Source: Elusimicrobiota bacterium (GTDB taxonomy: Bacteria; Elusimicrobiota; Elusimicrobia; UBA1565; UBA9628). From it: DNA of 64,000 bases. The notes below the pieces were generated by a model. It made no database searches. It saw only the letters and a program-made list of their open reading frames with translations, and had not been told where the DNA came from. Below, piece after piece: positions 4,614 to 50,914 of this stretch. The stretch's first letter is position 1; the number at the start of each line of letters is the position of its first letter. The stretch lies in assembly GCA_044450965.1 (NCBI GenBank), contig JBIOJO010000002.1:21246-85245 (forward strand). The letters are read 5' to 3'. The position numbers and the translations under genes are program-made.

Positions 4614-5642
4614 GTGTCGCGGCGCGTCTTCAGGGACTACAATAGCGCTATGGGGAAAACCTCCGCCGTTCTGACCGCCTGGTTGCTGGCCGGGGCCGTC
4701 GCCGTTTCCGCGCAGATCGCCGCGCCGCGCGCTTCGTTCACGTCGCCCGTCGCGGCTCTTCCGGCCTTCGCCGAGCCGTCGGCCGCCGCGGCCGCCGGCT
4801 TGTCTCCGGCGCCCTTGAGCCCCGCGCTTCTCTCGGCCCCCGCGCTGGCGCCGGCGTTCGCCGCGCCGATGAGCGCCTCGGAGCCGAGGGCCCAGAAGCC
4901 CGAGAAGGCCGCCGCTCCCTCCGAGTTCCCGCGCCTCGTGGCCGATCTGATGAGCAACGACGCGGCTCGATCGAACGTCGCCGTCCAGGAACTGCTCAAG
5001 CTGAAAGAGGCGCATCTCAACGACCATCCCGATTCGGTGAAGACCCGGATCTTGGACCTCAAGCCCATGCAGATCCCGGCCGGGATGTACGAGGTCCAGG
5101 ACAAGGCCAAGAAGCTGCGTGACATGAAGAACAAGGAGTCCGAGGCCTGGCTGAAGGAGAACTCGGTGCCGGTCGTGGAGGACTACAAAGGCCGACAGCG
5201 CCCCGTGGACCACCATCACGAGGCGCGCGCGGCCTGGGAAGCCGACATCGACGACGCCTACACCCACCATTATTTCGACGACGAGATGCACGCGCGGCTC
5301 AAGGCCCTGCCCCGTGAGCAGTTCTACGCCGTGACCCGAGCGATGGGCCTGTTCTACGACCGCGACCAGTTCGGCGCCGGCCCGCATGACCCCAATCACC
5401 TGCCCGAGGACGTGCGCGGCATGGGCGACGATCCGTTCCGCAGCGTGGCCTGGCAGGTCCGCAAGCGCGGCGGCTACGACAAGACGGCCGTCCCGTTCGC
5501 GGAATTCAAATGGGCGCAGTTCTTCCGGGACCGCGTGAAGACCTACCCGACCAAAGCCGACTTCGAGAAAACCGTCGTCGAGGCGATGGCGCTGGTCCAC
5601 GACCCCGGCGCGAGCGATCTGCCCGGCTACAAATCCAAGTAG
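4614..5642 (+). CDS. Exported hypothetical protein with Ala/Pro-rich low-complexity N-region and His-rich segment
   Basis: Signal peptide MGKTSAVLTAWLLAGAVAVSAQ, then an APAL-rich linker, then a conserved-looking C-domain (VDHHHEARAAWEAD...FAEFKWAQFFRD). Confidence 0.45.
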   Translation: MSRRVFRDYNSAMGKTSAVLTAWLLAGAVAVSAQIAAPRASFTSPVAALPAFAEPSAAAAAGLSPAPLSPALLSAPALAPAFAAPMSASEPRAQKPEKAAAPSEFPRLVADLMSNDAARSNVAVQELLKLKEAHLNDHPDSVKTRILDLKPMQIPAGMYEVQDKAKKLRDMKNKESEAWLKENSVPVVEDYKGRQRPVDHHHEARAAWEADIDDAYTHHYFDDEMHARLKALPREQFYAVTRAMGLFYDRDQFGAGPHDPNHLPEDVRGMGDDPFRSVAWQVRKRGGYDKTAVPFAEFKWAQFFRDRVKTYPTKADFEKTVVEAMALVHDPGASDLPGYKSK

Positions 5643-5686: not shown

Positions 5687-6118
5687 ATGAGCGACGCTTT
5701 CGCGGCCGGATCGAGCGAAGACCCCAAAACCAAGGAAATCCTCATCGTCGACGACGACGAGGCGATGCTGAACCTGCTTCAGATCCTGGTGCGCCGCGAC
5801 GGCTTCCGCACCGACCTGGCCTCCACCGGGGACGACGCGCTGGAGAAGCTCAAGCGCCCGCATTCCGCTTTGATCCTGGACCTGATGCTGCCCGGCGGGA
5901 CCAGCGGCTTCGACGTGCTGGCGCGCCTGAGGACGTTCGAGGGGACGGTCCCTCCCGTCATCGTGGTGACCGCCCACGCGCAGTCCGCGGAAGTCCAGGC
6001 CGTCATGAAGGATCCCAACGTGGTCCTGTTCCTCTCCAAGCCCATCAACCAGGAAAAGCTGCTGGGGGCGCTCCATAAGGTCCTGAAGACCCGCTCGTCG
6101 CGCCCGCCGAAGACGTAG
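5687..6118 (+). CDS. Single-domain response regulator receiver
   Basis: MSDAFAAG...EILIVDDDEAML...ALILDLMLPGGTSG...FLSKPI. The internal ATG at 5687 was preferred over the track start (5510) because the receiver fold begins there. Confidence 0.75.
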   Translation: MSDAFAAGSSEDPKTKEILIVDDDEAMLNLLQILVRRDGFRTDLASTGDDALEKLKRPHSALILDLMLPGGTSGFDVLARLRTFEGTVPPVIVVTAHAQSAEVQAVMKDPNVVLFLSKPINQEKLLGALHKVLKTRSSRPPKT

Positions 6119-6475: not shown

Positions 6476-6892
6476 ATGAAGATGATCAAGGAATTCAAGG
6501 AATTCGCGATGAAGGGCAACGTCGTGGACATGGCCGTCGGCGTCGTCATCGGCGGCGCGTTCGGCCGGATCGTGACGTCGTTCCTCAACGACATGATGAT
6601 GCCGCCGCTGGGGATGCTCACCGGGGGCGTGGACTTCACCGACCACCGCCTGACGCTGAAGGCCGCCGAGGCCGGTGGGAAAGCCGTCACGCTCAACTAC
6701 GGGGCCTTCATCACGGCCGTGGTGGACTTCGCCGTCGTCGCCTTCGCGGTGTTCATGCTGGTCAAGGCCATGAACACGCTCAAGCGCGAGCAGCCGGCGG
6801 CGCCCAGCGAGAAGCAGTGCCCCGAGTGCCTGCTGACCATCCCGCTCCGGGCCAAGCGCTGCGGCCACTGCGCGCAGCCCCAGCCCTCCTGA
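6476..6892 (+). CDS. mscL: Large-conductance mechanosensitive channel MscL with C-terminal Cys4 zinc-ribbon extension
   Basis: [46 protein letters not shown] closely matches the MscL N-terminus and TM1. The C-terminus has CPEC-x11-CGHC. Confidence 0.85.
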
Positions 6893-8025
6893 GCTCCGCC
6901 CTCGCGCTCCTCTCTCTGCTGGGGAGCGCGGGCCTTTGGGTGTGCCTGGCGGTCACGCGGCGCCATTTCCGCGGCGCGCCGCCGGAGGCCTGCGCCCGGC
7001 CGATGACCTTGATCAAGCCGATCAAGGGCCGGGACGACGCCATGGAGGACGGCTTCCGCGCCATCGTGGCGGCGGATCCGGGCCGGACGCTGCAGGTGCT
7101 GATCGCGCTGGAGACGGCCGATGATCCGGCCTATCCCGTCGCGCGCGCGTTCGCGGACGCGCACCCGGACCGCGACATCGAGGTGGTGCTGACGGGCCCC
7201 TCCGGCCCGCGCATGGGCAAGATCCACAACATGATCGAGGCCGCGCCCCGCGCGAAGCACCGCGTCATCCTGTTTTCCGACGCCGACGTCCGCATCACGC
7301 CGACCCTCCTGTCCGACACGGCGCGGGCGTTCGACGCGGGCGCCGACGCCGTCTACGCTCTGCCCTACCACGCCTTCGTGTCCGGTCCCGGGGGCTGGCT
7401 GTTCCTGGTCGCGTTCAACCACTCGTTCTGCGTCCCGGTGGCGCTGACCTACCGCTTGGGAAAACTGCGCTCGTTCGCCGGGGCTTGGATGGGCTACACG
7501 AAGGAGGCGCTCGCGGCGATCGGGGGCCTGGAGCGCTTCGAGAACGCCATCGCCGAGGATTTCTCCTTGGGTTTGGCGGCGAGCCGGGCGGGCCTGCGCC
7601 AGGTCCTGCTGCGCGAACCCGTCCTGGTCCGCGAGACGGGGACTTCCGTGAGCGAGGCGTTCACTCACATCTCCAAATGGACCTCGATCATCTTCTGGAG
7701 CTGGCCCGCGCCGGTGATCGCGGCACCGTTCGCGAGTCCATGTTTGTTGGGATATATATCCATTGCGCTCGCCGTGACGCTGGGGCTTCCAGTGAAATTA
7801 TCGTTGTTCGCCGTGTCCGTCGCGGCGCTCTCCCGCATCGCCGTCGGCGTTCTTCAAGACGAGTTCCTCAGCGGCTCCCGCGCCCCATTCTGGAGCTACG
7901 CCTTGCTTCCCATCGCGGACCTGGGGGCGCTGATTTTCCTCCCGCTGGCGCTCCGTCGCACCGTCACCTGGCGGGGAAAAACATACCGGCTGACCTTGGG
8001 CGGGCACGCGGAAGTCGTCGCCTGA
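6826..8025 (+). CDS. Family-2 glycosyltransferase of the ceramide glucosyltransferase-like (GT21/HpnI-like) type. The start codon is uncertain: no in-frame ATG covers the N-terminal TM segment, and the possible GTG at 6826 lies inside mscL.
   Basis: TM anchor [27 protein letters not shown], then [13 protein letters not shown] motif FSDADVRI and [10 protein letters not shown]-terminal [13 protein letters not shown] resembles the WRxGRYRL tail of glucosylceramide synthases. Confidence 0.6.
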
Positions 8026-8054: not shown

Positions 8055-8960
8055 ATGGCGCGCACGATCCTCGTCGTTGACGACGACCAGACCTTGGTCG
8101 CTCCGCTGAAGGACGGCCTTGAGTCCGCGGGCTACCGCGTGGCCACGGCGTTCGACGCCGCCCAGGGAATCCTCCAGGCGCACGAGGCGCGCCCGGATCT
8201 GATCATCCTGGATTTCTACATGCCCGGCGGAGACGGCGGCTGGGTCTATGAGCGCCTGCGCGCCGCGCCGGACACTATGGAAATCCCGGTCGTCTTTTCG
8301 ACCGGCCTGACCTTGGAGGAGCTCCGCGAGAAGGTGAAGTCCGGCTCCCGCACGTATTTCCTGAAGAAGCCCGTGGGCTTCAACGGTATTCTCTCGATCG
8401 TGAACCAGGTTCTGGGCGAGGACCGCCGCGCCATCATGGGCGACCCCGAACTGCCGAAAACCACGGGCACCCCGCCGCCGCCCCCGGCTCCGGCGCCCGC
8501 CGCGGCCGCTCCCATCGTCCGGCCGAAGGCGCGGTTCAACGAGTTCGACGTGCGCGTCACCTACGCCGATACCGACAAGCTGGGCATCATCTACTACGCG
8601 AACTACCTGAAGTACTTCGAGCAGGGCCGCACCGAGCTGATGCGCGGCCTGGGCGTGCGCTACCGGGACCTGGAGATCACCCGCAAGCTGTTCCTGCCCG
8701 CCGTGGAGGCGCGCGTGGAGTACAAGGCGCCCAGCCGCTACGACGACCTGCTGACGGTGCGCACCTGGATCGCGGAGATGGGCAAGGCCAGCATCTCATT
8801 CGAGTGCGACGTGGTGGACAAGGACCTGGGCGGCAAGCTCTGCGCCCGTGGATTTTCCCGCCACGCCATCGTCAACGACCTGTGGCGCACCACCCGCATC
8901 CCCGAGGACCTGCGCGCCCTGCTGAGCCCGTACGTGGGCCTAGGACCTTCCGCGAAGTAG
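8055..8960 (+). CDS. Response-regulator receiver domain fused to a YbgC/4HBT-type acyl-CoA thioesterase (hotdog fold)
   Basis: N-terminus MARTILVVDDDQ...LIILDFYMPGGDG...YFLKKP is a receiver. A Pro-rich linker PPPPPAPAPAAAAP follows. FNEFDVRVTYADTDKLGIIYYANYLKYFEQGRTELM aligns with YbgC [31 protein letters not shown], catalytic Asp included. Confidence 0.8.
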   Translation: MARTILVVDDDQTLVAPLKDGLESAGYRVATAFDAAQGILQAHEARPDLIILDFYMPGGDGGWVYERLRAAPDTMEIPVVFSTGLTLEELREKVKSGSRTYFLKKPVGFNGILSIVNQVLGEDRRAIMGDPELPKTTGTPPPPPAPAPAAAAPIVRPKARFNEFDVRVTYADTDKLGIIYYANYLKYFEQGRTELMRGLGVRYRDLEITRKLFLPAVEARVEYKAPSRYDDLLTVRTWIAEMGKASISFECDVVDKDLGGKLCARGFSRHAIVNDLWRTTRIPEDLRALLSPYVGLGPSAK

Positions 8961-8972: not shown

Positions 8973-10406
8973 TTATTCGTTCGGCGGGCCGGAGCCGGTC
9001 ATGGCGTAATAATAATTCGAACGGAAAAAATCGTTCGTCGTCATGACCGCGAAGGGCGTGCCCGCCATCGGTTTCTTCGTGTCCGGATCCACGAAGAAAT
9101 CCACGGTGCCGTGGCCGTTGGAGCCCATGCTGAAGGCGTTGGCGCGGCCCATGAACCTTTCCGGGTGTTCGATCAAGGCCATCATGACGTCGGTCATCGC
9201 GGCCAGGAACGCCGCCTGCTGGTTCTCGTCGTTGGCCAGCCCCACGCCGTACTGGTTCATCCACTGCTGGTTGATGTTCTCGTCCAGCCGCGCCAGCACG
9301 TCGGGAGTCCCGTTGGCCTTCATCAAGACGAGCTGCCCGTTGTTGCCCGGGTCGTAGGTCAGGGAGCCGTCCGTATTGCGCGTGAGCTGCCCCCGCGCCC
9401 AGGGAATCGAGCCGCCGACCGGGATGCTGACGACGGGGTTCGGGCCGAACATGCTCAGATAATCCGCGTACAGCCGCGCGTAGCCGGCGGACACTTTCCC
9501 GAAGACGCCGGGCACTTCGCCGTCGGGCCCGGCCGTGCCGGCCGTCAAGGTCGCGCTTCCGCCGCCCGACGTCGCGCCCGCGGCCTGTCCGGTCGCGGAC
9601 GCCGGCGGGGGTTTGGCGGCGTCGGAGGCGGGAGAAGCGCCGACGGAACCGCCCGAGCCGCCGTAGGCGGCGGCCGTTCCGGAGGCCTGCGATCCGGAGA
9701 TTCTCGCGGCGAGGGCGTCGCTCACGGTCGTGCCGGCCGACTCGCCCGCGGGTCCGGAGCCGTCGGCGGCGACTTCGGGCGGCGCGCCGCCGCCGTCGCG
9801 ATTGCCCGTGTCGGCCTTGGTCCGGTAGCCGCCCGTCTTGCTCGTTCCCGACATCCCGCGCCGGGGCCGGACGCCGAAGGCCAACAGTCCTTGGGATGAC
9901 GATCCCGGCGCGCCCGCGGCGGAGGCCTTCGCCGGCGACGAGCGGCCGGCGGCCGCGCGCGCTCGAGCGGTCCGGGCGGCGCTTGGCGCCACGGAATTGG
10001 GACCTTCACCTTCCAGCTTCGAGGAACGAACGACATCCTCTCTTCGGGCCGCGGCGTCACCCGCGGTCGCGGCCGACGAGGAGCGCGAGGGGAGGATTCC
10101 GGAGATCGGGCGCGTCGCGGCGGACGTCGGCGGGCGCTCATCGGTCTGGATCGTCGGGCGCGGCGAGTCCGCCGGCCGGGATCGAGGCATCGGGGAGAGG
10201 GAGGTCGATGCGGCGGGGGCGGCGTTCGCATGGACGGGAGCGGTTTTGGGATCGAACACCGACGGCGCGGCGCCGCGCTTTGAGCCCCCGTCCCGGATCA
10301 GGAAGCTGTAGCCGAATATGCCGGCGGAGACGAGCACGGCGGCGGCGATGACCGCTTTTTCACGCCGCTTGCCGGTGGCTTCTCGTTCGGCGTTCCAGGG
10401 AGGCAT
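8973..10406 (-). CDS. Membrane-anchored hypothetical protein with a ~300-aa Ala/Gly/Ser/Pro low-complexity region and a conserved C-terminal domain
   Basis: N-terminal TM AVIAAAVLVSAGIFGYSFLI, long low-complexity middle, structured C-terminus (...NQQWMNQYGVGLANDENQQAAF...). GC3 is coding-like on the minus strand. Confidence 0.5.
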   Translation of the reverse strand: MPPWNAEREATGKRREKAVIAAAVLVSAGIFGYSFLIRDGGSKRGAAPSVFDPKTAPVHANAAPAASTSLSPMPRSRPADSPRPTIQTDERPPTSAATRPISGILPSRSSSAATAGDAAARREDVVRSSKLEGEGPNSVAPSAARTARARAAAGRSSPAKASAAGAPGSSSQGLLAFGVRPRRGMSGTSKTGGYRTKADTGNRDGGGAPPEVAADGSGPAGESAGTTVSDALAARISGSQASGTAAAYGGSGGSVGASPASDAAKPPPASATGQAAGATSGGGSATLTAGTAGPDGEVPGVFGKVSAGYARLYADYLSMFGPNPVVSIPVGGSIPWARGQLTRNTDGSLTYDPGNNGQLVLMKANGTPDVLARLDENINQQWMNQYGVGLANDENQQAAFLAAMTDVMMALIEHPERFMGRANAFSMGSNGHGTVDFFVDPDTKKPMAGTPFAVMTTNDFFRSNYYYAMTGSGPPNE

Positions 10407-12511: not shown

Positions 12512-13597
12512 TCAGGTGTACGGAACGGCCTCGCACTCGGACGAGTAAGGGGCGGCCAGGCCGCTCTCGCTGGCGTACCACGACCAGGCGACCTTGACCA
12601 GCGCCTTCAGGATGCAGGCGGCGGGAATGGCGAACACCAGGCCCAGGAAGCCGAAGACCTCTCCGCCCAGGACCAGGGCCAGCAGGAACACCATCGGGTG
12701 CAGGTGGACCGAGTGGCGGGCGATGACGGGCTGGAGAAAGGCCTCGTCGGCGACGCGGATGCCGACGAACAGCAGCGCGACCTTCGCCCCGGCCCAGACG
12801 GTGCCGAACTGGTACCAGGCCATGCCGCCGCCCACCAGGATCCCGACGACGGCGCCCATGTACGGCACGAAGGAGCTGACGCCCGACAGCGCGGCGATCG
12901 CGAAGGCGTTGTCCACGCCCATGGCGAGCAGGCCGACGAAAGAGACGATGGTGATGGCCGCGGCGACGATCAGGATGCCGCGCAGGTAGTTGCCCAGCGC
13001 GGTGTCGATTTCGCCCATCAAATGGATGGCCTGCTCCACGTAGCGGCTGGGCGCGGATTGGATCAGGTGATCGAAGCCGTCGGGGCCGTCCAGAAGGAAG
13101 AAGAAGCCGATGAACGGCACCAGCAAGGCGTGCGCCAGGAACGGCAGCAGCCCCAGGATTTCGGTGGGCAGGGCCTGGAGCCGCTCCAGGCCCGTGCCGA
13201 CCACGGAATCCAGCGCGTGCTCGGCGATCTTCGGCGGGAGAGGGAGTTCGCGGGTGAGCTTGACCTGCTGGAGGGCGACCAGCTTCTGGATCTGCTTCGC
13301 GTAGGCCGGGGCGTTGGCGCCCAGGCTTTCCACCTCTTCCACGATGACGGACTTGAGGCCCGCGTAGGTGGCGTAGCCCAGCAGGCCCGCCGCCAGATAG
13401 CCGGCCAGAACCAGGTGGGAGCGGCGCAGGCCCTTCGCCTCGAAGTAGGTGACCAGGGGATTGAGCACGTAGGCGAAGGCCGCGGCCAGGACGAAGGGCG
13501 TCAGGGCCTCGCGCACCAGATAGGCGCCGTACAGGCACGCGCCGGCGACGACGAAGGCGCTCAGCGAGGGAAGGGCGCGGCTCTGTTGCTCAGGCAT
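12512..13597 (-). CDS. AI-2E family transporter (PerM/UPF0118)
   Basis: Eight-TM topology and the typical N-terminus ...FVVAGACLYGAYLVREALTPFVLAAAFAYVLNPLV. Confidence 0.75.
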   Translation of the reverse strand: MPEQQSRALPSLSAFVVAGACLYGAYLVREALTPFVLAAAFAYVLNPLVTYFEAKGLRRSHLVLAGYLAAGLLGYATYAGLKSVIVEEVESLGANAPAYAKQIQKLVALQQVKLTRELPLPPKIAEHALDSVVGTGLERLQALPTEILGLLPFLAHALLVPFIGFFFLLDGPDGFDHLIQSAPSRYVEQAIHLMGEIDTALGNYLRGILIVAAAITIVSFVGLLAMGVDNAFAIAALSGVSSFVPYMGAVVGILVGGGMAWYQFGTVWAGAKVALLFVGIRVADEAFLQPVIARHSVHLHPMVFLLALVLGGEVFGFLGLVFAIPAACILKALVKVAWSWYASESGLAAPYSSECEAVPYT

Positions 13598-14096
13598 TCG
13601 GGGACGCGGCGGCCGGGGCGCCGCTCATCGAGCGGCGCAGGCGCGCCGACAACAGGCGCGCGAGGTGGCCCATGATGCTCACGCCGATGCGCGGGTGGGC
13701 GCTGAGCAGGGAGTCCAGCTTGGTGCGATAAAGCAGGTGCAGGCGCGAGGGCTCGATCGCGGTCGCGGTCGCCGAGCGCGGCAGGGACTCGAGCAGGGCC
13801 ATTTCGCCGAAGAATTCGCCCGGCTCCAGGGTGTAGAGTTTGACGGGCTTTCCGTCCGCGCCGCTGCGGGTCAGCTCGACCTTTCCGGACTCCAGGATGA
13901 AGAGCGCGCGGCCGATGTCGCCCTCCATGAAGACCACCTCGCCCGACCGGTAGGTGCGCGCGTGCAGGGAGTGGACCAGCTCTCCGATTTCGCCGCCCTT
14001 CAGGTCGGCGAACAGCTCCAAGGAATGCAGGAACTGCTTCTTCTTGGAGAACTGCGGGTCGACGAACCAGCGCCGCAGGGCTTTGAAGGGGGCCAT
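13590..14096 (-). CDS. Stand-alone cyclic-nucleotide-binding (cNMP) domain protein
   Basis: MAPFKALRR...FFGEMALLESLPRSATATA is a CAP-like cNMP-binding fold. The internal ATG at 14096 was chosen because the track ORF start (14444) would run across the upstream small gene. 8-bp overlap with the AI-2E gene. Confidence 0.6.
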   Translation of the reverse strand: MAPFKALRRWFVDPQFSKKKQFLHSLELFADLKGGEIGELVHSLHARTYRSGEVVFMEGDIGRALFILESGKVELTRSGADGKPVKLYTLEPGEFFGEMALLESLPRSATATAIEPSRLHLLYRTKLDSLLSAHPRIGVSIMGHLARLLSARLRRSMSGAPAAASPNA

Positions 14097-14101
14097 GCGC
14101 G

Positions 14102-27200: not shown

Positions 27201-27275
27201 GCCCAGTTGGCGCAGTGGTAGCGCGTTCCCTTGACATGGGAAAGGTCACAGGTTCAAATCCTGTACTGGGCACCA
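27201..27275 (+). tRNA. tRNA-Val (anticodon GAC), CCA encoded
   Basis: Manual cloverleaf: acceptor GCCCAGT/ACTGGGC, D-arm GCGC-AGTGGTA-GCGC, anticodon stem TTCCC/GGGAA with loop TTGACAT, T-arm ACAGG-TTCAAAT-CCTGT. Confidence 0.85.
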
Positions 27276-29247: not shown

Positions 29248-32200
29248 ATGAAGACGACCCTCGCCGTCCCGATCGCGCTGACCCTGGCCCTCGCCCTGCC
29301 CGCCAGGGCGATGTCGTGGGGCGGCTCCTCGAAGCCCGATTTCGACGCCGTGTCCGAGGAGGCCGGGTTCTCTTCCGCGACCCAGCTGTTCCAGGAGACC
29401 GGCCGCGACAAGCTGGCCGTGGTCCAGGCCTTCGAGAATTTCGTCTCGCAGTTCCCGCGCAGCCCGCGGGTCGTCGACGCGCAGTTCCTCATCGGCGAGG
29501 CTTACCTGCAGCACGCGCTGTCCATCTTGAAGTCCGAGGCGACCGCCAAGAAGTCGTCCACCGCCCGCCTGCTCGCGCCGAAGAATCCGGCCGCGGCGAA
29601 GGCCCTGGAGGACGCGCGCAAGGCGTTCGAGGACGTCGTCCGCGACAAGAAATCCGGCCTGGCCGCCTCCGCGCAGTACCGCCTGGGGGAGGTCGCCTAC
29701 AACGACAAGGACTGGGAGAAGGCCGTCGCGGAGTTCCAGAACGTCGACAAGAATTTCCCGAAGTCCTACATCAACCCCGAGGCGCTGATGGGGATCATCT
29801 ACTCGGACCTGGCTTTGGAGCAGTTCTCCCAGGCCGAGGCGAACCTGTTCCTGCTGGGCGAGACCTACCCGACCTTCCTGCGCGAGCCGGCGGTCCTGTA
29901 CGCGCAGGGCATCGTGGCGCTCCACAAGGGCGACTACGCCAACGCCGAGCGTTCGCTGAAGGAAGTGAAGACCGCCGACGCGCAGTACTACCTGGGCAAG
30001 ACCTACCTGCTCAGCAAGCGCGCCTACCTGGCCGCGGCCGCCTTCGAGAACCTGATCCGCGACTACCAGGATTCCGAGCTGAAGGAGGAGGCGCAGTTCT
30101 TCATCGGCGACTCGTTCTTCCTGGCCGAGGACTTCAACGGCGCGATTTCCAAGTACCAGCGCTTCATCCAGCTCTATCCCGAGAGCCCGCTGCGCGTGTC
30201 CGCGCTGTTCCGCATCGGCTCGTCGTACTTCCAGAAGAAGGACTACGTGGAGGCGCGCGCCAACTTCCAGGCCGTCCTGGACCGCTACCCGAAGGACTTC
30301 TTCGCGCCGCTGGCTCAGTTCTTCATCGCCGAGTCCTACCTGATCGCCGGGCAGACGCGCGAGGCCCTGTTCGCCTACACCAAGGTCATCACGCAGTATC
30401 CGGACGCGGTCAAGATCGCGCCGGTCGCCTACTTCAAGCTGGCGTGGTGCCAGAACCAGGTCGGCGACTTCATGCAGGCCATCCAGACCGGCAACAACTT
30501 CGTGGCCCAGTACCCCAACCACGTGCTGGCCAAGAACATCTACGTGATCGTCGGCAACTCGCAGCTGTCGCTGAAGCGCTACGCGGAGGCGACGTCGTCC
30601 TTCCAGCGCATCATCGACCTGGCGCCGTCGTCGGACATCGCCGAGCAGGCGCTGTTCTCGATCCTGAAGAGCCAGTACGACCAGAAGGCCTTCAACTCCA
30701 TCCTGACGTCCTACCAGTTCATCTTCCGCCATCTGCCGCCGTCCAAATCCAAATGGCGCTCGATGAGCTACCTGTACGCCGCCGAGGCCTACCTGCAGCT
30801 GCAGCAGGTCGACGAGGCCAAGGTCATCTACGAGATGATCCTGAAGGTCTATCCGGACGACCCCGCGGCGTTCTACGCCCAGGACGGCCTGGCGTGGTGC
30901 CACTCGTACAAGGGCGAGGACCAGATGGCGCTGGAGGCGCGGCAGAAGCTCAAGGACATGCTCGCCGTGGCCAACTCCTCGTTCAGCTTCTCCGGCCTCA
31001 ACGAGCTGGGCATCGCGGACTCGATGTTCAACCAGAAGAACTACGAGGACTCCTATCAGCTCTACGCGAAGTACGCCGCCGACAATCCCGCGTCCCCCGA
31101 GGCGCCGTCGGCTCTGTACCGCGCGGCGATGAGCTCGTATCACCAGCGCTACTACACGCAGGCCATCGACTTGTGGAAGAAACTGATCGACCAGTACCCG
31201 AACGCGAAGGACTCCGCCCAGGCCCGCGCGCAGATCGCCGACACCTTGTTCCGCGCGCAAAAATACCCCGAGGCGATCGCGGCCTATCGCGGACTTCTGG
31301 ACGCGGACGCGAAGGGGCCCGCCGCGCCGCTGGCGCACCTGCGCATCGCGCAGTCGGCGTTCAACATGAAGGACGACGCGGCGGCGGTCAAGGAGGTCCA
31401 GGATCTGGTCGGGTCTTTCCCGGCGGCGCCGGAGTCCAACGACGGCCTGGATATCCTGGAGGCCGTGTTCGACCGCTCCCGCGGCTACGATTACAAGACC
31501 AGCCTGCGCGCGATCGTGACGTCCCAGCCCGGCACGCCCATCGGCGGGGAGGCTCAGTTCCGCCTGGCCCGCCGCGCCTTCGACGCGAAGGACTACCCGA
31601 CGGCCGCCGTCGAGTTCCAGAAGTTCTCGGTGGACTTCACGAACCACCCCGAGCTTCCGAAGGCGCAGTTCCTATTGGGGGAAAGCTATTTCAACCAGGG
31701 ACGCCATCAGGACTCGATCCCGGCGTACGAGCGCCTGCTCAACAACTTCGACAAGAACGACGACACGCCTCTGGCGGTGTTCCATCTGGCGAGCGCCTAC
31801 TACGCTCTGGAGAAGTACGACGACGCGTCGCGCTTCTACAACCGTCTGATCGAGGAGTATCCCAGCTCCGAATTCGCCGAGCCGGCGCAGTTCAACCTGG
31901 CGCTGGCGTACAAGAAGCTGGGCAAGCTGGACATGGCGCAATACGCCTACCAGAAGTACGTGGCCGCGGCCAAGCCCGGCGACGGGCAGGCGCAGAGCGC
32001 GCTGTGGGAGACGTATCAGATCCAGAAGGACCGCAAGGATTTCGACGGCGCGATCGCCACGCTGGCTCAGATCCGCTCCGTGCCGAAGGCCGACGCGGAC
32101 CTGACGTTCGAGACCTATTACAGGGAGAGCGAGGTCCGTCTGGCCGCCGGCCGGCCCGACGAGGCGCTGGCCGTCTGGGAGAAGATGCGGGCCATGAAGC

Positions 32201-32595
32201 CCGCCGGCTCCCCGTACCGGCTCCAGGCCCTGATCAAGCTGGGCGACGCGTACGAGAAGGCCAACGATCCCGCCTCCGCCGCGGACGTGTACGACGACCT
32301 GGCGAAGTCCGGGCCGAAGGACACGGCGAAGGCCGCGGCCGCGCGCGCGGCCGTGCTGCGCAAGTCCGCGGGCGGGGCGAAGCCGAAGAAGGCGGCGGCC
32401 GCCACGCCGAACGTGGACGAATCCGTTTCGCCCGACAGCGGCGGCACCCAGGTGATGCCGTCCGACGCGGGCGACGATCAGCCGGCGCCGGACGCGGTCC
32501 CGGTCAAGAAAGCGAAAAAGGCGAAGTCCGCCGTGAAGGGCCGACGCGGGGCCGCCGAGCCTTCGATGCCGGGCATGTCCAACCAGACCAACTAA
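29248..32595 (+). CDS. Exported giant tetratricopeptide-repeat protein (1115 aa) with a Lys/Ala-rich C-terminal tail
   Basis: Signal MKTTLAVPIALTLALALPARA. More than 20 TPR-like Y/F/W-x-helix repeats. Tail AKPKKAAAATP...KKAKKAKSAVKGRRG. ATG 3 nt after the thrS stop. Confidence 0.75.
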   Translation: MKTTLAVPIALTLALALPARAMSWGGSSKPDFDAVSEEAGFSSATQLFQETGRDKLAVVQAFENFVSQFPRSPRVVDAQFLIGEAYLQHALSILKSEATAKKSSTARLLAPKNPAAAKALEDARKAFEDVVRDKKSGLAASAQYRLGEVAYNDKDWEKAVAEFQNVDKNFPKSYINPEALMGIIYSDLALEQFSQAEANLFLLGETYPTFLREPAVLYAQGIVALHKGDYANAERSLKEVKTADAQYYLGKTYLLSKRAYLAAAAFENLIRDYQDSELKEEAQFFIGDSFFLAEDFNGAISKYQRFIQLYPESPLRVSALFRIGSSYFQKKDYVEARANFQAVLDRYPKDFFAPLAQFFIAESYLIAGQTREALFAYTKVITQYPDAVKIAPVAYFKLAWCQNQVGDFMQAIQTGNNFVAQYPNHVLAKNIYVIVGNSQLSLKRYAEATSSFQRIIDLAPSSDIAEQALFSILKSQYDQKAFNSILTSYQFIFRHLPPSKSKWRSMSYLYAAEAYLQLQQVDEAKVIYEMILKVYPDDPAAFYAQDGLAWCHSYKGEDQMALEARQKLKDMLAVANSSFSFSGLNELGIADSMFNQKNYEDSYQLYAKYAADNPASPEAPSALYRAAMSSYHQRYYTQAIDLWKKLIDQYPNAKDSAQARAQIADTLFRAQKYPEAIAAYRGLLDADAKGPAAPLAHLRIAQSAFNMKDDAAAVKEVQDLVGSFPAAPESNDGLDILEAVFDRSRGYDYKTSLRAIVTSQPGTPIGGEAQFRLARRAFDAKDYPTAAVEFQKFSVDFTNHPELPKAQFLLGESYFNQGRHQDSIPAYERLLNNFDKNDDTPLAVFHLASAYYALEKYDDASRFYNRLIEEYPSSEFAEPAQFNLALAYKKLGKLDMAQYAYQKYVAAAKPGDGQAQSALWETYQIQKDRKDFDGAIATLAQIRSVPKADADLTFETYYRESEVRLAAGRPDEALAVWEKMRAMKPAGSPYRLQALIKLGDAYEKANDPASAADVYDDLAKSGPKDTAKAAAARAAVLRKSAGGAKPKKAAAATPNVDESVSPDSGGTQVMPSDAGDDQPAPDAVPVKKAKKAKSAVKGRRGAAEPSMPGMSNQTN

Positions 32596-32607: not shown

Positions 32608-33222
32608 ATGGGCGACATCCATATTCTGCAGCTTTTCCAGCAAAGCTTCACCTTGGTCATCATGCTGTTCCTGTCGGTGCTCTCGGTGACTTTCGCGGTG
32701 GAGCGCTGGTGGTACTTCCGCACGGCGGCCGGCAGGGCCGAGGACGTCCTGGGCGGCGTGCGCAAGCAGTTGGAGGGCGGCAAGCCCGAGGCGGCCGCGG
32801 CGGCGTGCCAGAAGAACCCGACGGCGGTGGCGCAGGTCGTCGCCTACGGCCTGATGCACGCGGGCCGCTCGCGCAAGGACCTGGAGGAGCTGATGCTCTC
32901 CAAGCTGAAGGAGGAGCGCCTGAAGCTGGAGCGCTTCCTGCCCATCCTGGGAACCTTGGGCAACATCTCCCCGTTCATCGGCCTGTTCGGCACGGTGGTC
33001 GGCATCATCAAGGCGTTCCGCGATCTGGCGGCCTCCGGCACGGGCGGGCCCTCGGTGGTCGCCGCGGGCATCGCCGAGGCGCTGGTCTCGACGGCGGCCG
33101 GCCTGCTGGTGGCCATTCCGGCCGCGGTCCTGTACAACTATTTCATGGGCCGTCTGAAGAAGACGACCGTCGAGATGGAAGTGGCGAGCGCGCGCCTGAT
33201 CGTGATGCTGGGCGCGAAATAG
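32608..33222 (+). CDS. MotA/TolQ/ExbB-family proton channel
   Basis: 3-TM architecture with FIGLFGTVVGIIKAF and GIAEALVSTAAGLLVAIPA. Confidence 0.85.
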   Translation: MGDIHILQLFQQSFTLVIMLFLSVLSVTFAVERWWYFRTAAGRAEDVLGGVRKQLEGGKPEAAAAACQKNPTAVAQVVAYGLMHAGRSRKDLEELMLSKLKEERLKLERFLPILGTLGNISPFIGLFGTVVGIIKAFRDLAASGTGGPSVVAAGIAEALVSTAAGLLVAIPAAVLYNYFMGRLKKTTVEMEVASARLIVMLGAK

Positions 33223-33238
33223 AAGGACCGGGAGAACC

Positions 33239-33655
33239 ATGGCCGGCGCGTCCCAGAACGACGGCGAACCGATCACCGCGATCAACGTCACCCCGTTGGT
33301 GGACGTGTGCCTGGTGCTGGTCATCATCTTCATGGCCGTCGCGCCCATGGCCGTGACTTTGGGCATCAAGGTTCTCGAATCCCGCCCGTCGAACCAGGAA
33401 GGCAAGGCCTCGGTGGACGAGAACGTCCAGATCAAGATCGCGTTGGACGGCGGCATCACGGTCAACGGGACGAAGACCGACGGGATGACGTTCCGTTCGG
33501 TTCTGGCCGGCGCGTTGACGCGCAGCAAGGACAAGATGGTCATCATCACCGCGGACGCCCGCAACCATGTCGGGCAGGTCGTCGAGGTCCTGGACGCGTC
33601 CAAGCAGGCCGGGGCGCTGAAGCTGGCGATCATGAAGGCGGACGGGGGGAGCTGA
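33239..33655 (+). CDS. ExbD/TolR-family protein (paralog 1)
   Basis: [21 protein letters not shown] is a single TM, followed by a periplasmic domain. Confidence 0.85.
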
Positions 33656-34065
33656 TGGCGGGATCCAGCTACAGCGACGACGCTCCCATCACGGACATCA
33701 ACATCACGCCGCTGGTGGACGTGTGCCTGGTGCTGGTCATCATCTTCATGGTGACCGCGCCGATGATGTCGGATCCGGCCATCAAGGTGGAGCTGCCCAA
33801 GGCCCACACGCAGGAAGGCGAGGAGAAGGACAAGATCACTTTGACGCTGTCGAAGGACGGCGAGTACGCGCTCGACTACGTGAAGTTCACGGACGTCAAG
33901 AAGCTGGAGGAGACGCTCAAGCAGAAGCTGGCGGAGAGCGACTCGAAGCTGATCATCCTGCGCGCCGACAAGGACGCGCTGACCGGCCAGCTGACGGACC
34001 TGATGGCCCGCGCCAAGGACGCCGGCGCGCTGTCCATGACGATCGCGACGGAACAACAGAAATGA
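33655..34065 (+). CDS. ExbD/TolR-family protein (paralog 2)
   Basis: [26 protein letters not shown]-type overlap with paralog 1. Confidence 0.8.
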
Positions 34066-34083
34066 AGACGGGGTCTCTGAGGC

Positions 34084-35154
34084 ATGGCTGAGGCGCGCAT
34101 CCCGACGTCGGTCGTCGTCTCCGTGGGCCTGCACGGCGGGCTGCTGGTGTTTTTCGGCCTGGCCATGCGCGAGGCCCCCAAGCAGGCGGCCAAGGTCGTG
34201 GACGGGGTGGACTTGCTGATCTCCGCGCCAAAGCCGCGCGCGGCGCAGGGCGAAGCGGCTCCCAAGCCGCCGCCGCTGTCCACGTTCGATTTCCTGAAGC
34301 TGGCCTTGCCGACGGTCCCGCATTCGGCCGCCCCGGCGCAGCTGTCGATCAAGATGCCCGAGCACAAGATCGCGCTGGCCGACGCGCCGAAGCTGGAGGA
34401 CGAGGCGAAGAAGGACCGTGGGCCGAAGCTTCAGACGCTGGACCTGAGCGCCCATCCGGTGGACGTGGCCAAGCTGGACGTGAAGATCACCCGCCGCCAG
34501 GCCGCGGCGACCTTGGCCGCGCTGCCGCGCCTGGAGGAAGTCGGCCGCAAGCGGGTGAAGAACCTGCCTCAGGCCCTGGAGCTGGAGGACCGCCGCCGGG
34601 AGGCGGTCGCCGCCTCCGGCCTGCCGGAGATGACGATCAAGACTCCGACGCGGCGCCAGGCTCTGGCCGCGGTCTCCGCGCTGCAGGAAGCCGCGCCCGC
34701 CGAGCGCGCGCCGGAGCGTAAGGGGCTGGGCTCGCTCCTGCCGGAAAGGCCGCTGCTGATGGAGGCTCGCCCTCAGCCGGTCATGGCCGCTAAAATGGAG
34801 AAGGTCTCCGCGATCGCTCCGCGCCTGGAGCGCCGCCAGGCCGAGCAGGCCGGCGCCGCGAAGAAAGGCGTCGAGATCGAGGGGCCGCTGGCCGACCGTA
34901 AGGTCGCGGCCTATTCGGTGCCGTCGTTTCCGGACTGGGCCCGGAACCAGGGAATCCTGGAGGCCGACGTGGCCATCCGGTTCACCGTGGACGAGGACGG
35001 CAACGTGATGCCGGGGATGCGCGTGGAGAACTCCTCGGGCTACGGCCGCCTCGACAAGCTGGCGATGGAATCCTTGAGAAGCTGGCGCTTCGCGACGAAG
35101 CCGGGCGCGGGCGTGCAGTGGGGCGTGATCACCTTCCGGTTTATCTTGGAGTGA
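34084..35154 (+). CDS. TonB/TolA-like energy-transducer (N-terminal TM, long Pro/Ala/Lys linker, C-terminal TonB_C domain)
   Basis: TM VVVSVGLHGGLLVFFGLA. C-terminus ILEADVAIRFTVDEDGNV...GYGRLDKLAMESLRSWRF matches TonB_C. Confidence 0.7.
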   Translation: MAEARIPTSVVVSVGLHGGLLVFFGLAMREAPKQAAKVVDGVDLLISAPKPRAAQGEAAPKPPPLSTFDFLKLALPTVPHSAAPAQLSIKMPEHKIALADAPKLEDEAKKDRGPKLQTLDLSAHPVDVAKLDVKITRRQAAATLAALPRLEEVGRKRVKNLPQALELEDRRREAVAASGLPEMTIKTPTRRQALAAVSALQEAAPAERAPERKGLGSLLPERPLLMEARPQPVMAAKMEKVSAIAPRLERRQAEQAGAAKKGVEIEGPLADRKVAAYSVPSFPDWARNQGILEADVAIRFTVDEDGNVMPGMRVENSSGYGRLDKLAMESLRSWRFATKPGAGVQWGVITFRFILE

Positions 35155-35159
35155 CGACT

Positions 35160-36101
35160 ATGATGATGAACGCGATCGCCGTCCTGCTTCTGTCCGTCCC
35201 GGTCTCGGCCCAAAACGCGCCGGCGTCCACCGGCCCGGCCACGACCGGCGGCATGCCCACCGAGGTCGTCATCAAGGCCGACGGCAACAAGCTCTCCGAC
35301 ACCAAGCCGCCGCTCAAGATCGACGTGGACCCGTTCGAGACCATCCGGCCGGAGCTGAAGCCCGACCAGAACCTTCTGCTGGCCGTGTCGCCCCTGACCG
35401 TGTCGTGGCGGCGCACGCACCCCGAGTTCCTGTTCAACGATCGTGTGATCCAGCCGTGGCGCGGCACGTTCAGCCAGCGTCCGGGCATCGCGTTCAAGAT
35501 CCGCGAGCAGCTGGAGAACCTCCTGGGAGGCGGCAAGGGCGACCCCAAGGAGCTCAAGAAGTGGGGCTGGAGCCTGACCATCGCCGACGAGGAAGGCCGC
35601 GTCTTCCATCACTACGAGGGCTCCGGCGATCCGCCCGAGGAGATCATCTGGAACGGTCAGAACGACCAGAACGAGTGGGTCCGCGCCGGCCGCTCCTACT
35701 CCGCCGTCTACACGTTCACCAGCCCCGACGGCTCGCCGCGCACGCGCGTGGGCAACCCGCTTTTGTTCAAGGGCATCGTCCACCAGGAGGACACCGGCCT
35801 GCACATCAGCATGGACTCCTCGGTGCTGTTCGGCACCAACAAGAACGGCCAGGAGCTCCAGGACGGGCCCGGCAAGGACCTGCTGCGCTCCGCGGCCGAC
35901 CTGGTCAAGCGCCGTTTTCCCGCGATCCCCATCGCGGTGCGCGTCTACTCCAACACCAAGGAGCTGGGCGACGCCCAGGCCGCGGCCGTTCAGCAGTTCC
36001 TGCTCCGCGACCTGATGGTTCCGGCGCGCAACATCTCCACCGACGCCGCGCGCGCCCCGTTCTCCGATCAGCGCGTCGAGGTCGTGCTTCTGAACCGGTG
36101 A
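35160..36101 (+). CDS. Exported protein with a C-terminal OmpA/Pal-like peptidoglycan-binding domain
   Basis: Signal MMMNAIAVLLLSVPVSA. C-terminus SVLFGTNKNGQEL...IPIAVRVYSNT...DAQAAAVQQFLLRDL is a divergent OmpA_C-like domain. Confidence 0.55.
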   Translation: MMMNAIAVLLLSVPVSAQNAPASTGPATTGGMPTEVVIKADGNKLSDTKPPLKIDVDPFETIRPELKPDQNLLLAVSPLTVSWRRTHPEFLFNDRVIQPWRGTFSQRPGIAFKIREQLENLLGGGKGDPKELKKWGWSLTIADEEGRVFHHYEGSGDPPEEIIWNGQNDQNEWVRAGRSYSAVYTFTSPDGSPRTRVGNPLLFKGIVHQEDTGLHISMDSSVLFGTNKNGQELQDGPGKDLLRSAADLVKRRFPAIPIAVRVYSNTKELGDAQAAAVQQFLLRDLMVPARNISTDAARAPFSDQRVEVVLLNR

Positions 36102-45617: not shown

Positions 45618-46289
45618 GTGAAGCTGTTCCTTTCCTTCGCCGTCCTGTTCTGCGCGACGCGCGGGGTCGCCGGCCCCATCGGGGCCGTGGACGCGCACGC
45701 GGTCTCCGCCACGGGTTTTCCCGGCGCGTACTTGGAGAGCATCTCCTTGGCGGCCGCGTCCGATCCGTTCTACGGCTCCCGCTTCCTGGACGGGCTCCAG
45801 GTCCATCTGCAGGCGGTGAGCGGCATGACCGCCCAGCCCGCGATCGCCAGCTACCTGGAACAGGCGGCCACCGCCGGTCAGGGCCTGGGCCAATTGAAGG
45901 AGTCCTTGGGCGCGGTGCCCCTTGATCCGCCGAAGGCGGCCGCGCTGCTGATCGCCAACGCGCTGGCGCGTCCCCGGCAGTTCCGCGAAGTGATCGACAA
46001 CCTGGAGACGTTCAAGCCGGGCCTGGGCCGCCACGCGGCCGCCATCCTGCGCGAAACCAAGGGCGAGGGCGACAAGCGCGTCATCGCGGCGCTGCGCGCC
46101 GCGGGGGAAAACAAGCCGCAGGGGAAGATGCTGACCTACGGCCCCGACGGGCGGCTGGACATGCTGTTCGACGGCATCGAGGGCGTCCGCGCCGGCGCCG
46201 CCGAGTCCTCCGTCGTGACCGCCCCGGCGAGCGTGTATGGGCCCGACGGCCGTCCGCGTCCTTCCGGGCTTCTTCCCGCCAAGCCGTAA
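45618..46289 (+). CDS. Exported hypothetical protein (GTG start)
   Basis: Signal MKLFLSFAVLFCATRGVAGP. Coding-like GC3. No homolog recognised. Confidence 0.45.
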   Translation: MKLFLSFAVLFCATRGVAGPIGAVDAHAVSATGFPGAYLESISLAAASDPFYGSRFLDGLQVHLQAVSGMTAQPAIASYLEQAATAGQGLGQLKESLGAVPLDPPKAAALLIANALARPRQFREVIDNLETFKPGLGRHAAAILRETKGEGDKRVIAALRAAGENKPQGKMLTYGPDGRLDMLFDGIEGVRAGAAESSVVTAPASVYGPDGRPRPSGLLPAKP

Positions 46290-46338
46290 GTCCCGGACGG
46301 TTGAGGTCCGCGGGCATATCTGGTATCATGTCCGTCAC

Positions 46339-46413
46339 GGGCCTGTAGCTCAGCTGGGAGAGCGCCTGCATGGCATGCAGGAGGTCAGCGGTTCGATCCC
46401 GCTCAGGTCCACC
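46339..46413 (+). tRNA. tRNA-Ala (anticodon GGC), G3:U70 identity pair, CCA encoded
   Basis: GGGCCTGTAGCTCAGCTGGGAGAGC..., anticodon loop ATGGCAT, T-arm AGCGG-TTCGATC-CCGCT, acceptor 3' CAGGTCC-A-CCA. Confidence 0.85.
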
Positions 46414-46419
46414 AGATTT

Positions 46420-46441
46420 AAAACCCCCGCGAGGGGGTTTT
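46420..46441 (+). terminator. Rho-independent terminator after tRNA-Ala
   Basis: aaaaCCCCCgcgaGGGGGttttt. Confidence 0.6.
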
Positions 46442-46514
46442 TAATTTCAGGGGATCGAACCGCTGAACGACTTTAAAGGCGGTCCGGCCGCGCGTCGTGC
46501 CGCGCGGCCGGGCC

Positions 46515-46541
46515 GCGGTTCGATCCCGCTCAGGTCCACCA
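46515..46541 (+). repeat. 27-nt direct duplicate of the tRNA-Ala 3' end (gcggttcgatcccgctcaggtccacca), 128 bp downstream of the original copy. Att-site-like.
   Basis: Exact match to 46387-46413. Preceded by a perfect 11-bp GC hairpin (ccggccgcgcg-tcgtgc-cgcgcggccgg). An inverted partial T-arm fragment lies at 46448-46466 (ggggatcgaaccgctgaac). Confidence 0.6.
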
Positions 46542-46676
46542 CTTTCGACGCGTTTCTCGACGAGAACCCGGTTCGAGCCTTTCGTTTGGCTTTGACCGGG
46601 TTCTCTGCTTTTGGAGGGGCTATGGTCACAAATTGGTCACAAGCCTTTTTGGCCGGCGCCACAACGAACACAGGCC

Positions 46677-46710
46677 TTGACGCGAGCTGCTACGGGGCTA
46701 CACTCAGGCG
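46677..46710 (+). promoter_or_regulatory. Sigma70-type promoter TTGACG-16-TACACT, then GGAG and ATG 46722
   Basis: ttgacg(46677-46682), tacact(46699-46704), GGAG 46713-46716. Confidence 0.45.
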
Positions 46711-46721
46711 ATGGAGCGGCG

Positions 46722-47942
46722 ATGATGGGGGGCGACACGAAACTTGGCAGGCGGTTGTTCAATTGTCTGCTGGCGATTGCCGGTGTCAGTTTGTCGTCGC
46801 GGGCCGACGCTGCGGCGGCCTCGCCGCTCTTGGTCGACGAGGCCTGCTTTGCGGTCGCTGAGAGCACTCAAGACTGGCTTCCTAGAGAAGGTGGAAAGGG
46901 ATGTAAGACCTCTCCTCACGGGACAGAGCCCGACGACATTTTTTCATTCGAAGAAGGAGCCAACCTCGAGCGGGGCCAAACGTTCTCAAACTTTGGTTCG
47001 ACACTGGCAGTTGTCGAGGTCGCCGACGATATCCTGGTTCTTGTCGATGGAAAAAAAGTTGCCGAGTTCACGGATCCGCACGGCGTAAGGGAGCCGATTC
47101 AGGCCGCGTTTTTCCATGATCGAAGCTGGGTACTTGAGCACGACGGCACCGTTGTGGTCGACGGCCATGACATCGCCAAAGAAAATGGATATCAAGCGGT
47201 CTTCTTCTATCGGTTTCTCGGCGATCGTCCCTTTTTCCTGTTCGTGGATGCCGCCGGAAAATTTGGGATGTCTTTCGATGGCAAGGTTCTCCCATTCCAT
47301 TACGACGCAATACCTTATGGGCTTTGTTGCAGCAATGGCGTATTCAATCCTCGGCGCAGTCCCAGCGCCGCGGTCTTCTTCGGCCTCAGAGGAAAGACAT
47401 GGTATAGCGTGACGGCACGCGCTCGTCTTCCGACACCTGAAGAAACAACGCAAAAGGTTGAGGGGATCGTCAGTTCCCTCGAGTCCGCGCGGAACTGGTT
47501 TACAGTCGAGGTCAACGGCGAGGGTTGGGCGACCACTCTTAGTAGCCACACGATGATGATGCGTTCAGGCCAGAAACCTATCCCAGCCCGCTTCGACTTG
47601 CTTCATCTTGGGCAAAGGGTCAGTACGATCCGGGCGTCGAACGGCGAATTACTGTGTGTCATTTTTCTTGATCCGGTCGCCGATGGAACAGAGAAGGCCA
47701 TGACTTCTGTACTCGCGGAAGTCGTCTCATACTCAGGCTCAAGCGCGGAATTGACCGTACTCACTTGGGGCTCTGTCCGTCAGAGCTACAGCTTCATCAT
47801 CACTCCCGATACCAAGATTTGGCGCTATAAGGGTTTGCCGATAAAGGTTCCGGTCGAGACGCTCGTCCCGGGTGCGCCTGTGACCGTTGAATATGAAGTT
47901 GAAGGATCCAGCCTCGTGGCACGAACAATCGGCGGGAGGTAG
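46722..47942 (+). CDS. Exported hypothetical protein (406 aa) in a lower-GC segment
   Basis: Signal MMGGDTKLGRRLFNCLLAIAGVSLSSRADA. GC is about 55%, against about 68% in the flanks. Runs of A/T are common here and rare elsewhere in the window. Confidence 0.55.
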   Translation: MMGGDTKLGRRLFNCLLAIAGVSLSSRADAAAASPLLVDEACFAVAESTQDWLPREGGKGCKTSPHGTEPDDIFSFEEGANLERGQTFSNFGSTLAVVEVADDILVLVDGKKVAEFTDPHGVREPIQAAFFHDRSWVLEHDGTVVVDGHDIAKENGYQAVFFYRFLGDRPFFLFVDAAGKFGMSFDGKVLPFHYDAIPYGLCCSNGVFNPRRSPSAAVFFGLRGKTWYSVTARARLPTPEETTQKVEGIVSSLESARNWFTVEVNGEGWATTLSSHTMMMRSGQKPIPARFDLLHLGQRVSTIRASNGELLCVIFLDPVADGTEKAMTSVLAEVVSYSGSSAELTVLTWGSVRQSYSFIITPDTKIWRYKGLPIKVPVETLVPGAPVTVEYEVEGSSLVARTIGGR

Positions 47943-48043
47943 CTCCACTGTCCGAACTCGGCTTCGCTGGTGATTCCCATTGGCCACTATCCGCTAATAG
48001 CAGCTGACGCTACTAGCGATGGTAAAGAACCGTTTCACCGGCC

Positions 48044-49959: not shown

Positions 49960-50063
49960 AATCCGGCCGCCTGATTCCGCTGACAATCGCGAGATTGTCC
50001 CCTGCGCGGGCGCGGTTACACTTAATAGCAGGCCCTCTCTCCCTGCCCCGCGCGGAGGCGCTT

Positions 50064-50477: not shown

Positions 50478-50480
50478 GGG

Positions 50481-50903: not shown

Positions 50904-50914
50904 GGTTCATCCCC

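Follow-up and report, generated by a model that had tools for sequence, protein, structure and literature searches.

A gene at positions 8055–8960 (+ strand) of the DNA analyzed here, a 64,000-nucleotide stretch of an Elusimicrobiota bacterium (contig JBIOJO010000002.1, positions 21,246 to 85,245; hereafter the window), encodes a receiver (REC) domain fused through a Pro/Ala-rich linker to a hotdog thioesterase of the YbgC/FadM type. We propose, with a probability of roughly 0.6, that the protein is a cytoplasmic orphan response regulator in which phosphorylation of D53 controls the hydrolysis of acyl-coenzyme A (acyl-CoA) or of acylated acyl carrier protein (acyl-ACP). In a broader and more tentative reading, the family to which it belongs would be an undescribed, Elusimicrobiota-restricted class of response regulators, whose output is an acyl-thioester hydrolase acting directly, without transcription, on the acyl-CoA/acyl-ACP pool and hence on envelope lipids.

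The gene is a single open reading frame (ORF) of 301 codons and a stop, running from an ATG at 8055 to the stop codon at 8958–8960, in exact agreement with the coordinates given in a preliminary description of this DNA. The stop-to-stop frame extends upstream as far as 7485, but 8055 is the real start, since the ORF of the preceding glycosyltransferase runs to 8025 and homologues begin with the same N-terminus, M-(A/S)-R-T-I-L-V-V-D-D-D. The product is small and soluble, without transmembrane segments. Both halves score above the Pfam cutoffs in searches with profile hidden Markov models. Response_reg (PF00072) matches residues 5–116 (65.2 bits, cutoff 30.2) over positions 1–110 of the 111 in its profile, while the C-terminal half is matched by 4HBT_2 (residues 168–288, 54.7 bits, cutoff 25.5) and by 4HBT (residues 177–257, 51.4 bits, cutoff 20.6). 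The NCBIfam model for the YbgC/FadM subfamily, TIGR00051, gives 82.9 bits, above its cutoff of 68.7, whereas the protein stays below the two equivalog models for the YbgC of tol-pal operons, TIGR02799 (89.2 bits vs 141.35) and NF008065 (64.3 bits vs 185). The thioesterase half belongs to YbgC/FadM at the subfamily level only and is not an orthologue of the tol-pal YbgC. A sequence search of the PDB returns the thioesterases 1z54 (E = 4e-18), 5v10 (E = 4e-17), 3hm0 and E. coli YbgC (E about 1e-12), together with many receiver domains. The architecture proposed in the preliminary description, a complete receiver followed by a Pro/Ala linker and a YbgC/FadM-type 4HBT hotdog domain, is borne out by Pfam, NCBIfam, AlphaFold2 and Foldseek alike.

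The receiver occupies positions 8055–8414 (+), residues 1–120. It carries the acidic pocket D9/D10/D11, the phospho-acceptor D53 (codon 8211–8213) within the motif LIILDF, T83, the switch aromatic F102 and the pair K105-P106. Residue conservation was computed over an alignment of 149 full-length non-redundant homologues. The three pocket aspartates and K105 are kept in all 149; D53 and F102 are each kept in 148, as is T83, for which the remaining sequence has Ser. Mean pairwise identity of the receiver across the family is 69%. Helix α1 is more conserved than α2, α4 and α5. This is the usual kinase-docking helix in kinase–regulator complexes, and its particular conservation fits a shared, conserved phosphodonor. 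In the AlphaFold2 model the domain has five strands alternating with five helices, the (βα)5 topology, and Foldseek matches it to RpaA and other receivers.

The thioesterase domain spans positions 8535–8939 (+), residues 161–295, as delimited by 4HBT_2, 4HBT, TIGR00051 and Foldseek. Its motif D172-T-D174 (codons 8568–8576) lies in the segment R167-V-T-Y-A-D172-T-D174-K-L-G-I-I-Y-Y-A-N-Y184. D172 is invariant among the 149 homologues and D174 is kept in 147, the other two having Glu. D174 aligns with the catalytic Asp position of PROSITE PS01328, whose pattern is [QR]-[IV]-x(4)-[TC]-D-x(2)-G-[IV]-V-x-[HF]-x(2)-[FY] (PMC516016). The strict pattern fails only at I179, where V is expected, and at Y181, where H or F is expected; residues 167–184 match once both are allowed, and both departures appear to be conservative changes. 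Every pocket, acceptor, switch and catalytic residue named in the preliminary description (the DDD pocket, the phospho-Asp, T/S, K and the DTD motif) is present and conserved in 147–149 of the 149 sequences. Judged from sequence, both domains appear to retain every residue required for their chemistry. With a mean pairwise identity of 72% for the thioesterase, the two domains are also under equal purifying selection within an Elusimicrobiota-restricted clade, while the length of the linker is free to vary. The most divergent members of the family, P0126 and P0128, have the motifs PADAEVSG and AADCDPSG vs YADTDKLG in the window protein; both combine lower 4HBT scores with canonical receiver residues. 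Substrate or mechanism may thus have shifted in the deep branches.

The linker, encoded at positions 8415–8534 (+), corresponds to about residues 121–160. Across the family it ranges from 12 to 259 amino acids, consists of 49% Pro and Ala and has a mean pairwise identity of 37%. An AlphaFold2 monomer model built from a 69-sequence alignment has a mean predicted local distance difference test score (pLDDT) of 81.8 and a predicted template modeling score of 0.47. The receiver (residues 1–120, pLDDT 78–96 by block) and the hotdog domain (about residues 160–295) are confidently modeled, and pLDDT falls below 50 for residues 124–141. The protein is thus predicted to consist of two domains on a flexible tether. 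Foldseek superimposes the hotdog domain on 5v10, 1z54, 1s5u and 5kl9 with target-normalized TM-scores of 0.81–0.88 and root mean square deviations of about 2.4–2.5 Å. Sequence identity is 35% to the tol-pal YbgC of Pseudomonas aeruginosa, PA0968 (5v10), 32% to Thermus thermophilus TT1821 (1z54) and 27–29% to E. coli YbgC (1s5u, 5kl9). The domain had earlier been described as aligning almost residue for residue with E. coli YbgC. This is an overstatement, given the low identity, a sequence alignment that ends at residue 255 and the failure to reach the equivalog cutoffs; what the two share is the motif region and the fold. Compared with YbgC, PA0968 and TT1821, the window protein has the same fold and the same D-x-D motif and is likewise a member of TIGR00051; it differs in being only 27–35% identical to them, in bearing an N-terminal receiver and a linker, and in being encoded outside a tol-pal operon.

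The fusion is not peculiar to this contig. An identical protein (100%; P0001) is present in an NCBI Elusimicrobiota metagenome-assembled genome and, with this self-match excluded, the best 120 of 840 homologues are all REC + 4HBT proteins of 284–318 amino acids that are 65–91% identical to it. The 149 non-redundant full-length homologues come from independent assemblies, each as one continuous ORF, and family members are labeled in databases as "YbgC/FadM family acyl-CoA thioesterase", "response regulator" or "CheY-like chemotaxis protein/acyl-CoA thioester hydrolase". When 1.84 billion cluster representatives (50% identity) were searched exhaustively, about eight clusters proved to carry the fusion (271–401 amino acids), and the sole matches ranked below these were multi-receiver proteins and two thioesterases that stand alone. 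The closest stand-alone thioesterases are P0137 and P0225. The best 150 representatives contain no independent REC–4HBT fusion outside the family; weaker ones may exist, as their scores would place them beneath the multi-receiver proteins. Taking P0128, the most divergent member (42% identity), as the query extends the family to proteins of up to 529 amino acids; all the named ones are from Elusimicrobiota, and this search returned no REC + 4HBT protein from outside the phylum. Scanning one genome per GTDB species, we located 54 loci with the fusion, of which about 49 have a full-length copy. Nearly all are labeled Elusimicrobia or Elusimicrobiota, a few only "bacterium" and none is assigned to another phylum; other phyla gave single-domain matches only. 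The carriers include two chromosome-scale contigs, one of which is a complete chromosome, CP096137.1. As far as these searches reach, the fusion is confined to one uncultured high-GC Elusimicrobiota clade.

Such recurrence also settles whether two separate genes might have been joined by a misassembly or by a frameshift, the latter named in the preliminary description as a possible flaw at the junction. The same continuous ORF is found in 149 non-redundant sequences, across many independent assemblies and on two chromosome-scale contigs, and the linker varies in length yet stays in frame. We therefore exclude an artefact of this kind, whose probability is vanishingly small.

In the mechanism that we propose, a histidine kinase or phosphorelay would phosphorylate the receiver on D53, and a flexible Pro/Ala tether would join this receiver to a hotdog thioesterase for acyl-CoA (or acyl-ACP), with D174 as its catalytic residue. 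Phosphorylation would then change thioesterase activity by either of two routes. The receiver may cease to mask the catalytic domain, as in CheB, or, following the precedent of PleD and WspR, receivers may dimerize through the α4-β5-α5 face and so assemble or stabilize a dimer or tetramer of hotdog domains. The active sites of hotdog thioesterases form at subunit interfaces, which makes receiver dimerization a plausible switch, and the long and variable tether favors masking or oligomerization over rigid allostery. More tentatively, the thioesterase may trim an acyl-thioester pool that feeds membrane or envelope lipid synthesis.

Several points weigh against this proposal. That phosphorylation alters thioesterase activity is something that we infer by analogy, and none of our computations shows an effect on catalysis. 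Structure prediction had been suggested as a way to see whether receiver dimerization could gate the hotdog dimer; it delivered two confident domains, but the monomer model has no confident interface between receiver and hotdog domain and no fixed mutual orientation. The linker can exceed 250 amino acids, a length at which tight intramolecular coupling is hard to picture. The YbgC/FadM subfamily spans short- and long-chain acyl-CoA thioesterases, FadM, and the thioesterases for 1,4-dihydroxy-2-naphthoyl-CoA and 4-hydroxybenzoyl-CoA. We compared the neighborhoods in 53 related locus records with the fusion, of which 50 had both domains mapped: the envelope-type neighbors are variable, the only strongly conserved neighbors are convergent, and the related loci show no conserved histidine kinase adjacent to the gene. 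In favor of the proposal, some relatives offer a signaling context. At one locus only (L035:6862-7992), a cytoplasmic REC-HisKA-HATPase kinase of 376 amino acids ends 9 nucleotides before the fusion gene, and it has no orthologue beside the fusion in the other related loci. A stand-alone receiver of 126–131 amino acids lies directly upstream in five loci (L032, L047, L049, L050 and L057), mostly those of long-linker members, and these receivers are 54–84% identical to one another. Together, this kinase and these receivers hint at a phosphorelay.

Some of these observations also bear on an alternative in which the thioesterase is constitutive and the receiver recruits it, in a phosphorylation-dependent manner, to a membrane complex, a kinase or some other partner, or else serves as a phosphate sink or phosphorelay intermediate. 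A linker so long, disordered and variable (12–259 amino acids) suits tethering better than allostery, the five upstream stand-alone receivers hint at a multi-receiver relay, and E. coli YbgC itself acts together with ACP, PlsB and Pss in a network of proteins (PMC6013679). The strict conservation of the switch pair T83/F102 nevertheless implies that a conformational switch matters. In CheB, PleD and RpfG, moreover, it is the activity that changes on phosphorylation, and we consider this alternative unlikely. The roles of the two domains could also be reversed, the hotdog domain being an input that senses acyl-CoA or acyl-ACP, modulates phosphotransfer or partner binding by the receiver and thereby reports lipid-precursor status to a phosphorelay. 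Receivers usually precede effector domains, however, and the essentially invariant D172-x-D174 speaks for a domain that still hydrolyzes its ligand and does not just bind it. Although hotdog domains bind acyl-CoA tightly, with E. coli YbgC structures available with CoA and acyl-CoA (5kl9, 5t06, 5t07), and although this domain is the sole candidate output domain and no kinase is adjacent, a sensor function appears improbable. An orphan gene with no linked kinase would also be compatible with a pseudo-receiver that acts independently of phosphorylation, for dimerization or stability only. Pseudo-receivers typically lose some of the canonical residues, yet here the five phospho-chemistry positions and the switch aromatic are kept in 148–149 of the 149 homologues, which leaves this explanation highly improbable. 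Control of the thioesterase by phosphorylation of D53 is the reading that we carry forward.

Response regulators with an enzymatic output are well established, and CheB, with its N-terminal receiver, flexible linker and C-terminal ester hydrolase, offers a parallel to the fusion protein. It is the classic case of a receiver that masks a hydrolase until phosphorylated. CheB differs in having the CheB_methylest fold and a protein glutamyl methyl ester as its substrate, whereas the fusion protein has a predicted hotdog output for which an acyl thioester is the expected substrate. CheB is also encoded together with CheA in che operons, unlike the fusion gene, which has no linked kinase, and the linker of the fusion is much longer and more variable. 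PleD and WspR (REC-GGDEF) and RpfG (REC-HD-GYP) are likewise response regulators with an enzyme as output, but their output is second-messenger metabolism and not thioester hydrolysis. In PleD and WspR, phosphorylation-driven oligomerization brings the catalytic domains together, a principle that could apply equally to enzymes with their active site at the interface of a dimer. Most enzymatic outputs of response regulators, among them CheB, GGDEF, EAL, HD-GYP and PP2C, act on signaling molecules.

To our knowledge, thioesterase is not a listed output class of response regulators. The preliminary description had set the protein outside the standard classes, and this view stands, in that full-text searches, which did not extend to response-regulator censuses, found no paper describing a receiver–thioesterase or receiver–hotdog fusion. 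A 2004 survey of the hotdog superfamily lists no domain partner for the YbgC-like subfamily (PMC516016). The same survey documents one genetic connection of this kind, in the comA operon of Bacillus subtilis, where the response regulator ComA is co-transcribed with the hotdog protein ComA2 (YuxO) (PMC516016). The comA genes differ from the present case in being separate and not fused; ComA2 belongs to 4HBT class II, and the output of ComA is DNA-binding. Receivers attached to metabolic enzymes are a recognized class (PMC5847659). What is new here is the output domain, a thioesterase; enzymatic response regulators and receivers on metabolic enzymes are already known. If the proposal is right, a receiver–thioesterase would couple two-component signaling directly, at the post-translational level, to the metabolism of acyl thioesters and lipids. 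What YbgC-type thioesterases do in the cell is still unclear, even for E. coli and Salmonella (PMC6013679, PMC12204202), and a form that carries its own switch could reveal when the activity is called for, offering an experimental handle on the role of YbgC. The host lineage is uncultured; with a small, soluble protein that has no transmembrane segments, the hypothesis would be cheap to test in vitro.

Immediately upstream of the fusion gene, on the same strand, lie the two genes that the preliminary description had placed next to it. The gene for the large-conductance mechanosensitive channel, mscL (6476–6892, +; Pfam MscL, 147 bits), abuts a gene for a GT21-family, HpnI-like glycosyltransferase (6889–8025, +; Pfam Glyco_transf_21, 78.5 bits), whose start falls between about 6889 and 6942. 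The best NCBIfam match of the glycosyltransferase is HpnI, at 152 bits, under the cutoff of 310. Because mscL and the glycosyltransferase gene abut, only 29 nucleotides separate the latter from the fusion gene and no terminator-like site was found between the three, they probably form a single transcription unit with mscL first. Lipid control could then be coordinated with the mechanosensitive channel and the lipid glycosyltransferase from the same unit. An Rfam scan detected no riboswitch or other RNA element near the fusion gene.

Adjacency to the GT21 gene holds in the window but is not a fixed feature of the family, as the same-strand gene upstream of the fusion varies among the related loci. 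A GT21 gene is directly upstream in about 10 of 50 loci; mscL lies within 650 nucleotides upstream in seven, in two or three of them directly upstream. In five loci (L013, L016, L018, L020 and L024) the gene directly upstream encodes an OmpA-family (Pal/YiaD-like) lipoprotein of 107–202 amino acids (for example, L018:7388-7996), and in four of these five (L016, L018, L024 and one further) mscL stands just before it. The pairing of a thioesterase with a peptidoglycan-binding OmpA-family lipoprotein loosely recalls ybgC and pal, although neither tolQRA nor tolB was seen beside the lipoprotein gene in these five loci. The recurrence of MscL, GT21 and OmpA-family neighbors on the same strand, taken together with the published links of YbgC to ACP, PlsB and Pss, faintly suggests a role in envelope or lipid homeostasis. 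YbgC binds ACP and, through its complex, PlsB and Pss, and in ybgC mutants the phospholipids of the outer membrane build up (PMC6013679).

On the downstream side the conserved anchor is a pair of genes at 12512–14099 (−), convergent to the fusion gene, for an AI-2E-family transporter and a cyclic nucleotide monophosphate (cNMP)-binding protein. The cNMP_binding assignment comes from a Pfam match on the window gene, and AI-2E_transport is taken from a Pfam match on the homologous gene in related loci. The transporter gene is found downstream of the fusion in 48 of the 53 records and the cNMP-binding gene in 47, followed by ileS and lspA. Because the pair is convergent, its conservation reflects synteny and not co-transcription. 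Between this pair and the fusion gene, at 8973–10406 (−), is a convergent ORF of 477 amino acids with coding-like GC content at third codon positions. Its N-terminal two-thirds are of low complexity, rich in Ala, Ser, Gly and Pro, and the C-terminal third is of ordinary composition; it has no Pfam or NCBIfam match and stands beside the fusion in none of the related loci. Farther upstream, positions 4614–5642 (+) encode a ParBc_2 protein, a putative ParB-like nuclease whose N-terminus looks, by eye, like a signal peptide. It is followed by a stand-alone receiver gene (domain at about 5738–6073, +; stop at 6118), 0.4 kb upstream of mscL. This receiver is not orthologous to the stand-alone receivers that adjoin the fusion in other loci.

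A dense signaling cluster, mostly on the − strand, occupies window positions 49995–61417, 42 kb from the fusion gene. It comprises a MASE1-HisKA-HATPase kinase (58946–61417), a REC-PAS-HisKA-HATPase kinase (57498–58961), an OmpR-type regulator (56431–57102), a protein of 1,930 amino acids with eight or nine tandem HAMP domains, GAF, HisKA-HATPase and three receivers (50915–56707), and two stand-alone receivers (50481–50903, −, and 49995–50477, +). The kinases of this cluster are possible phosphodonors for the orphan REC–4HBT protein; they have no orthologues beside the fusion in the related loci. Upstream kinase–regulator pairs at two of those loci (L018 and L049) were considered as cognate partners and set aside; judged from ORF size and N-terminal sequence, they look like classical pairs in which the kinase has its own partner.

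The fusion gene does not head a tol operon. It follows mscL and the GT21 gene, and the only TolQ/TolR-like genes of the window are about 24 kb away. These are a TolQ/ExbB-like gene (32608–33222, +; best match TolQ, 119 bits vs a cutoff of 221) and a TolR/ExbD-like gene (33239–33655, +; 68 bits vs 127), followed by a TonB_C-containing gene (34084–35154, +), also below equivalog cutoffs. An ORF of 1,092 amino acids with no Pfam or NCBIfam match (29316–32592, +) precedes them, and an ORF of 327 amino acids without a family (35118–36101, +) comes after. No TolB or Pal was detected in the cluster at 32,608–35,154. As all family matches lie below the equivalog cutoffs, its designation as a definite Tol-Pal system is rejected as unproven; the cluster may be either Tol or Ton. 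The preliminary description had drawn an argument from the lack of a ybgC in this Tol-like cluster, which carries little weight. Besides the sub-cutoff matches, linkage of ybgC to tol is not reported as universal: a recent survey describes a ybgC ahead of tol-pal as prevalent among gamma-, beta- and alpha-proteobacteria and Acidithiobacillia, and TolA outside the proteobacteria, including that of Elusimicrobia, as proline-rich and TonB-like (PMC12204202). With reports of such linkage coming mainly from Proteobacteria, a cluster that lacks ybgC is to be expected and is uninformative.

Elsewhere in the window, GC content falls to 0.594 in the interval 46001–48000 vs about 0.65–0.72 in other parts, the drop following directly on a tRNA gene at 46339–46411; a small insertion of foreign DNA could account for it. 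Another tRNA gene lies at 27201–27272, just before thrS.

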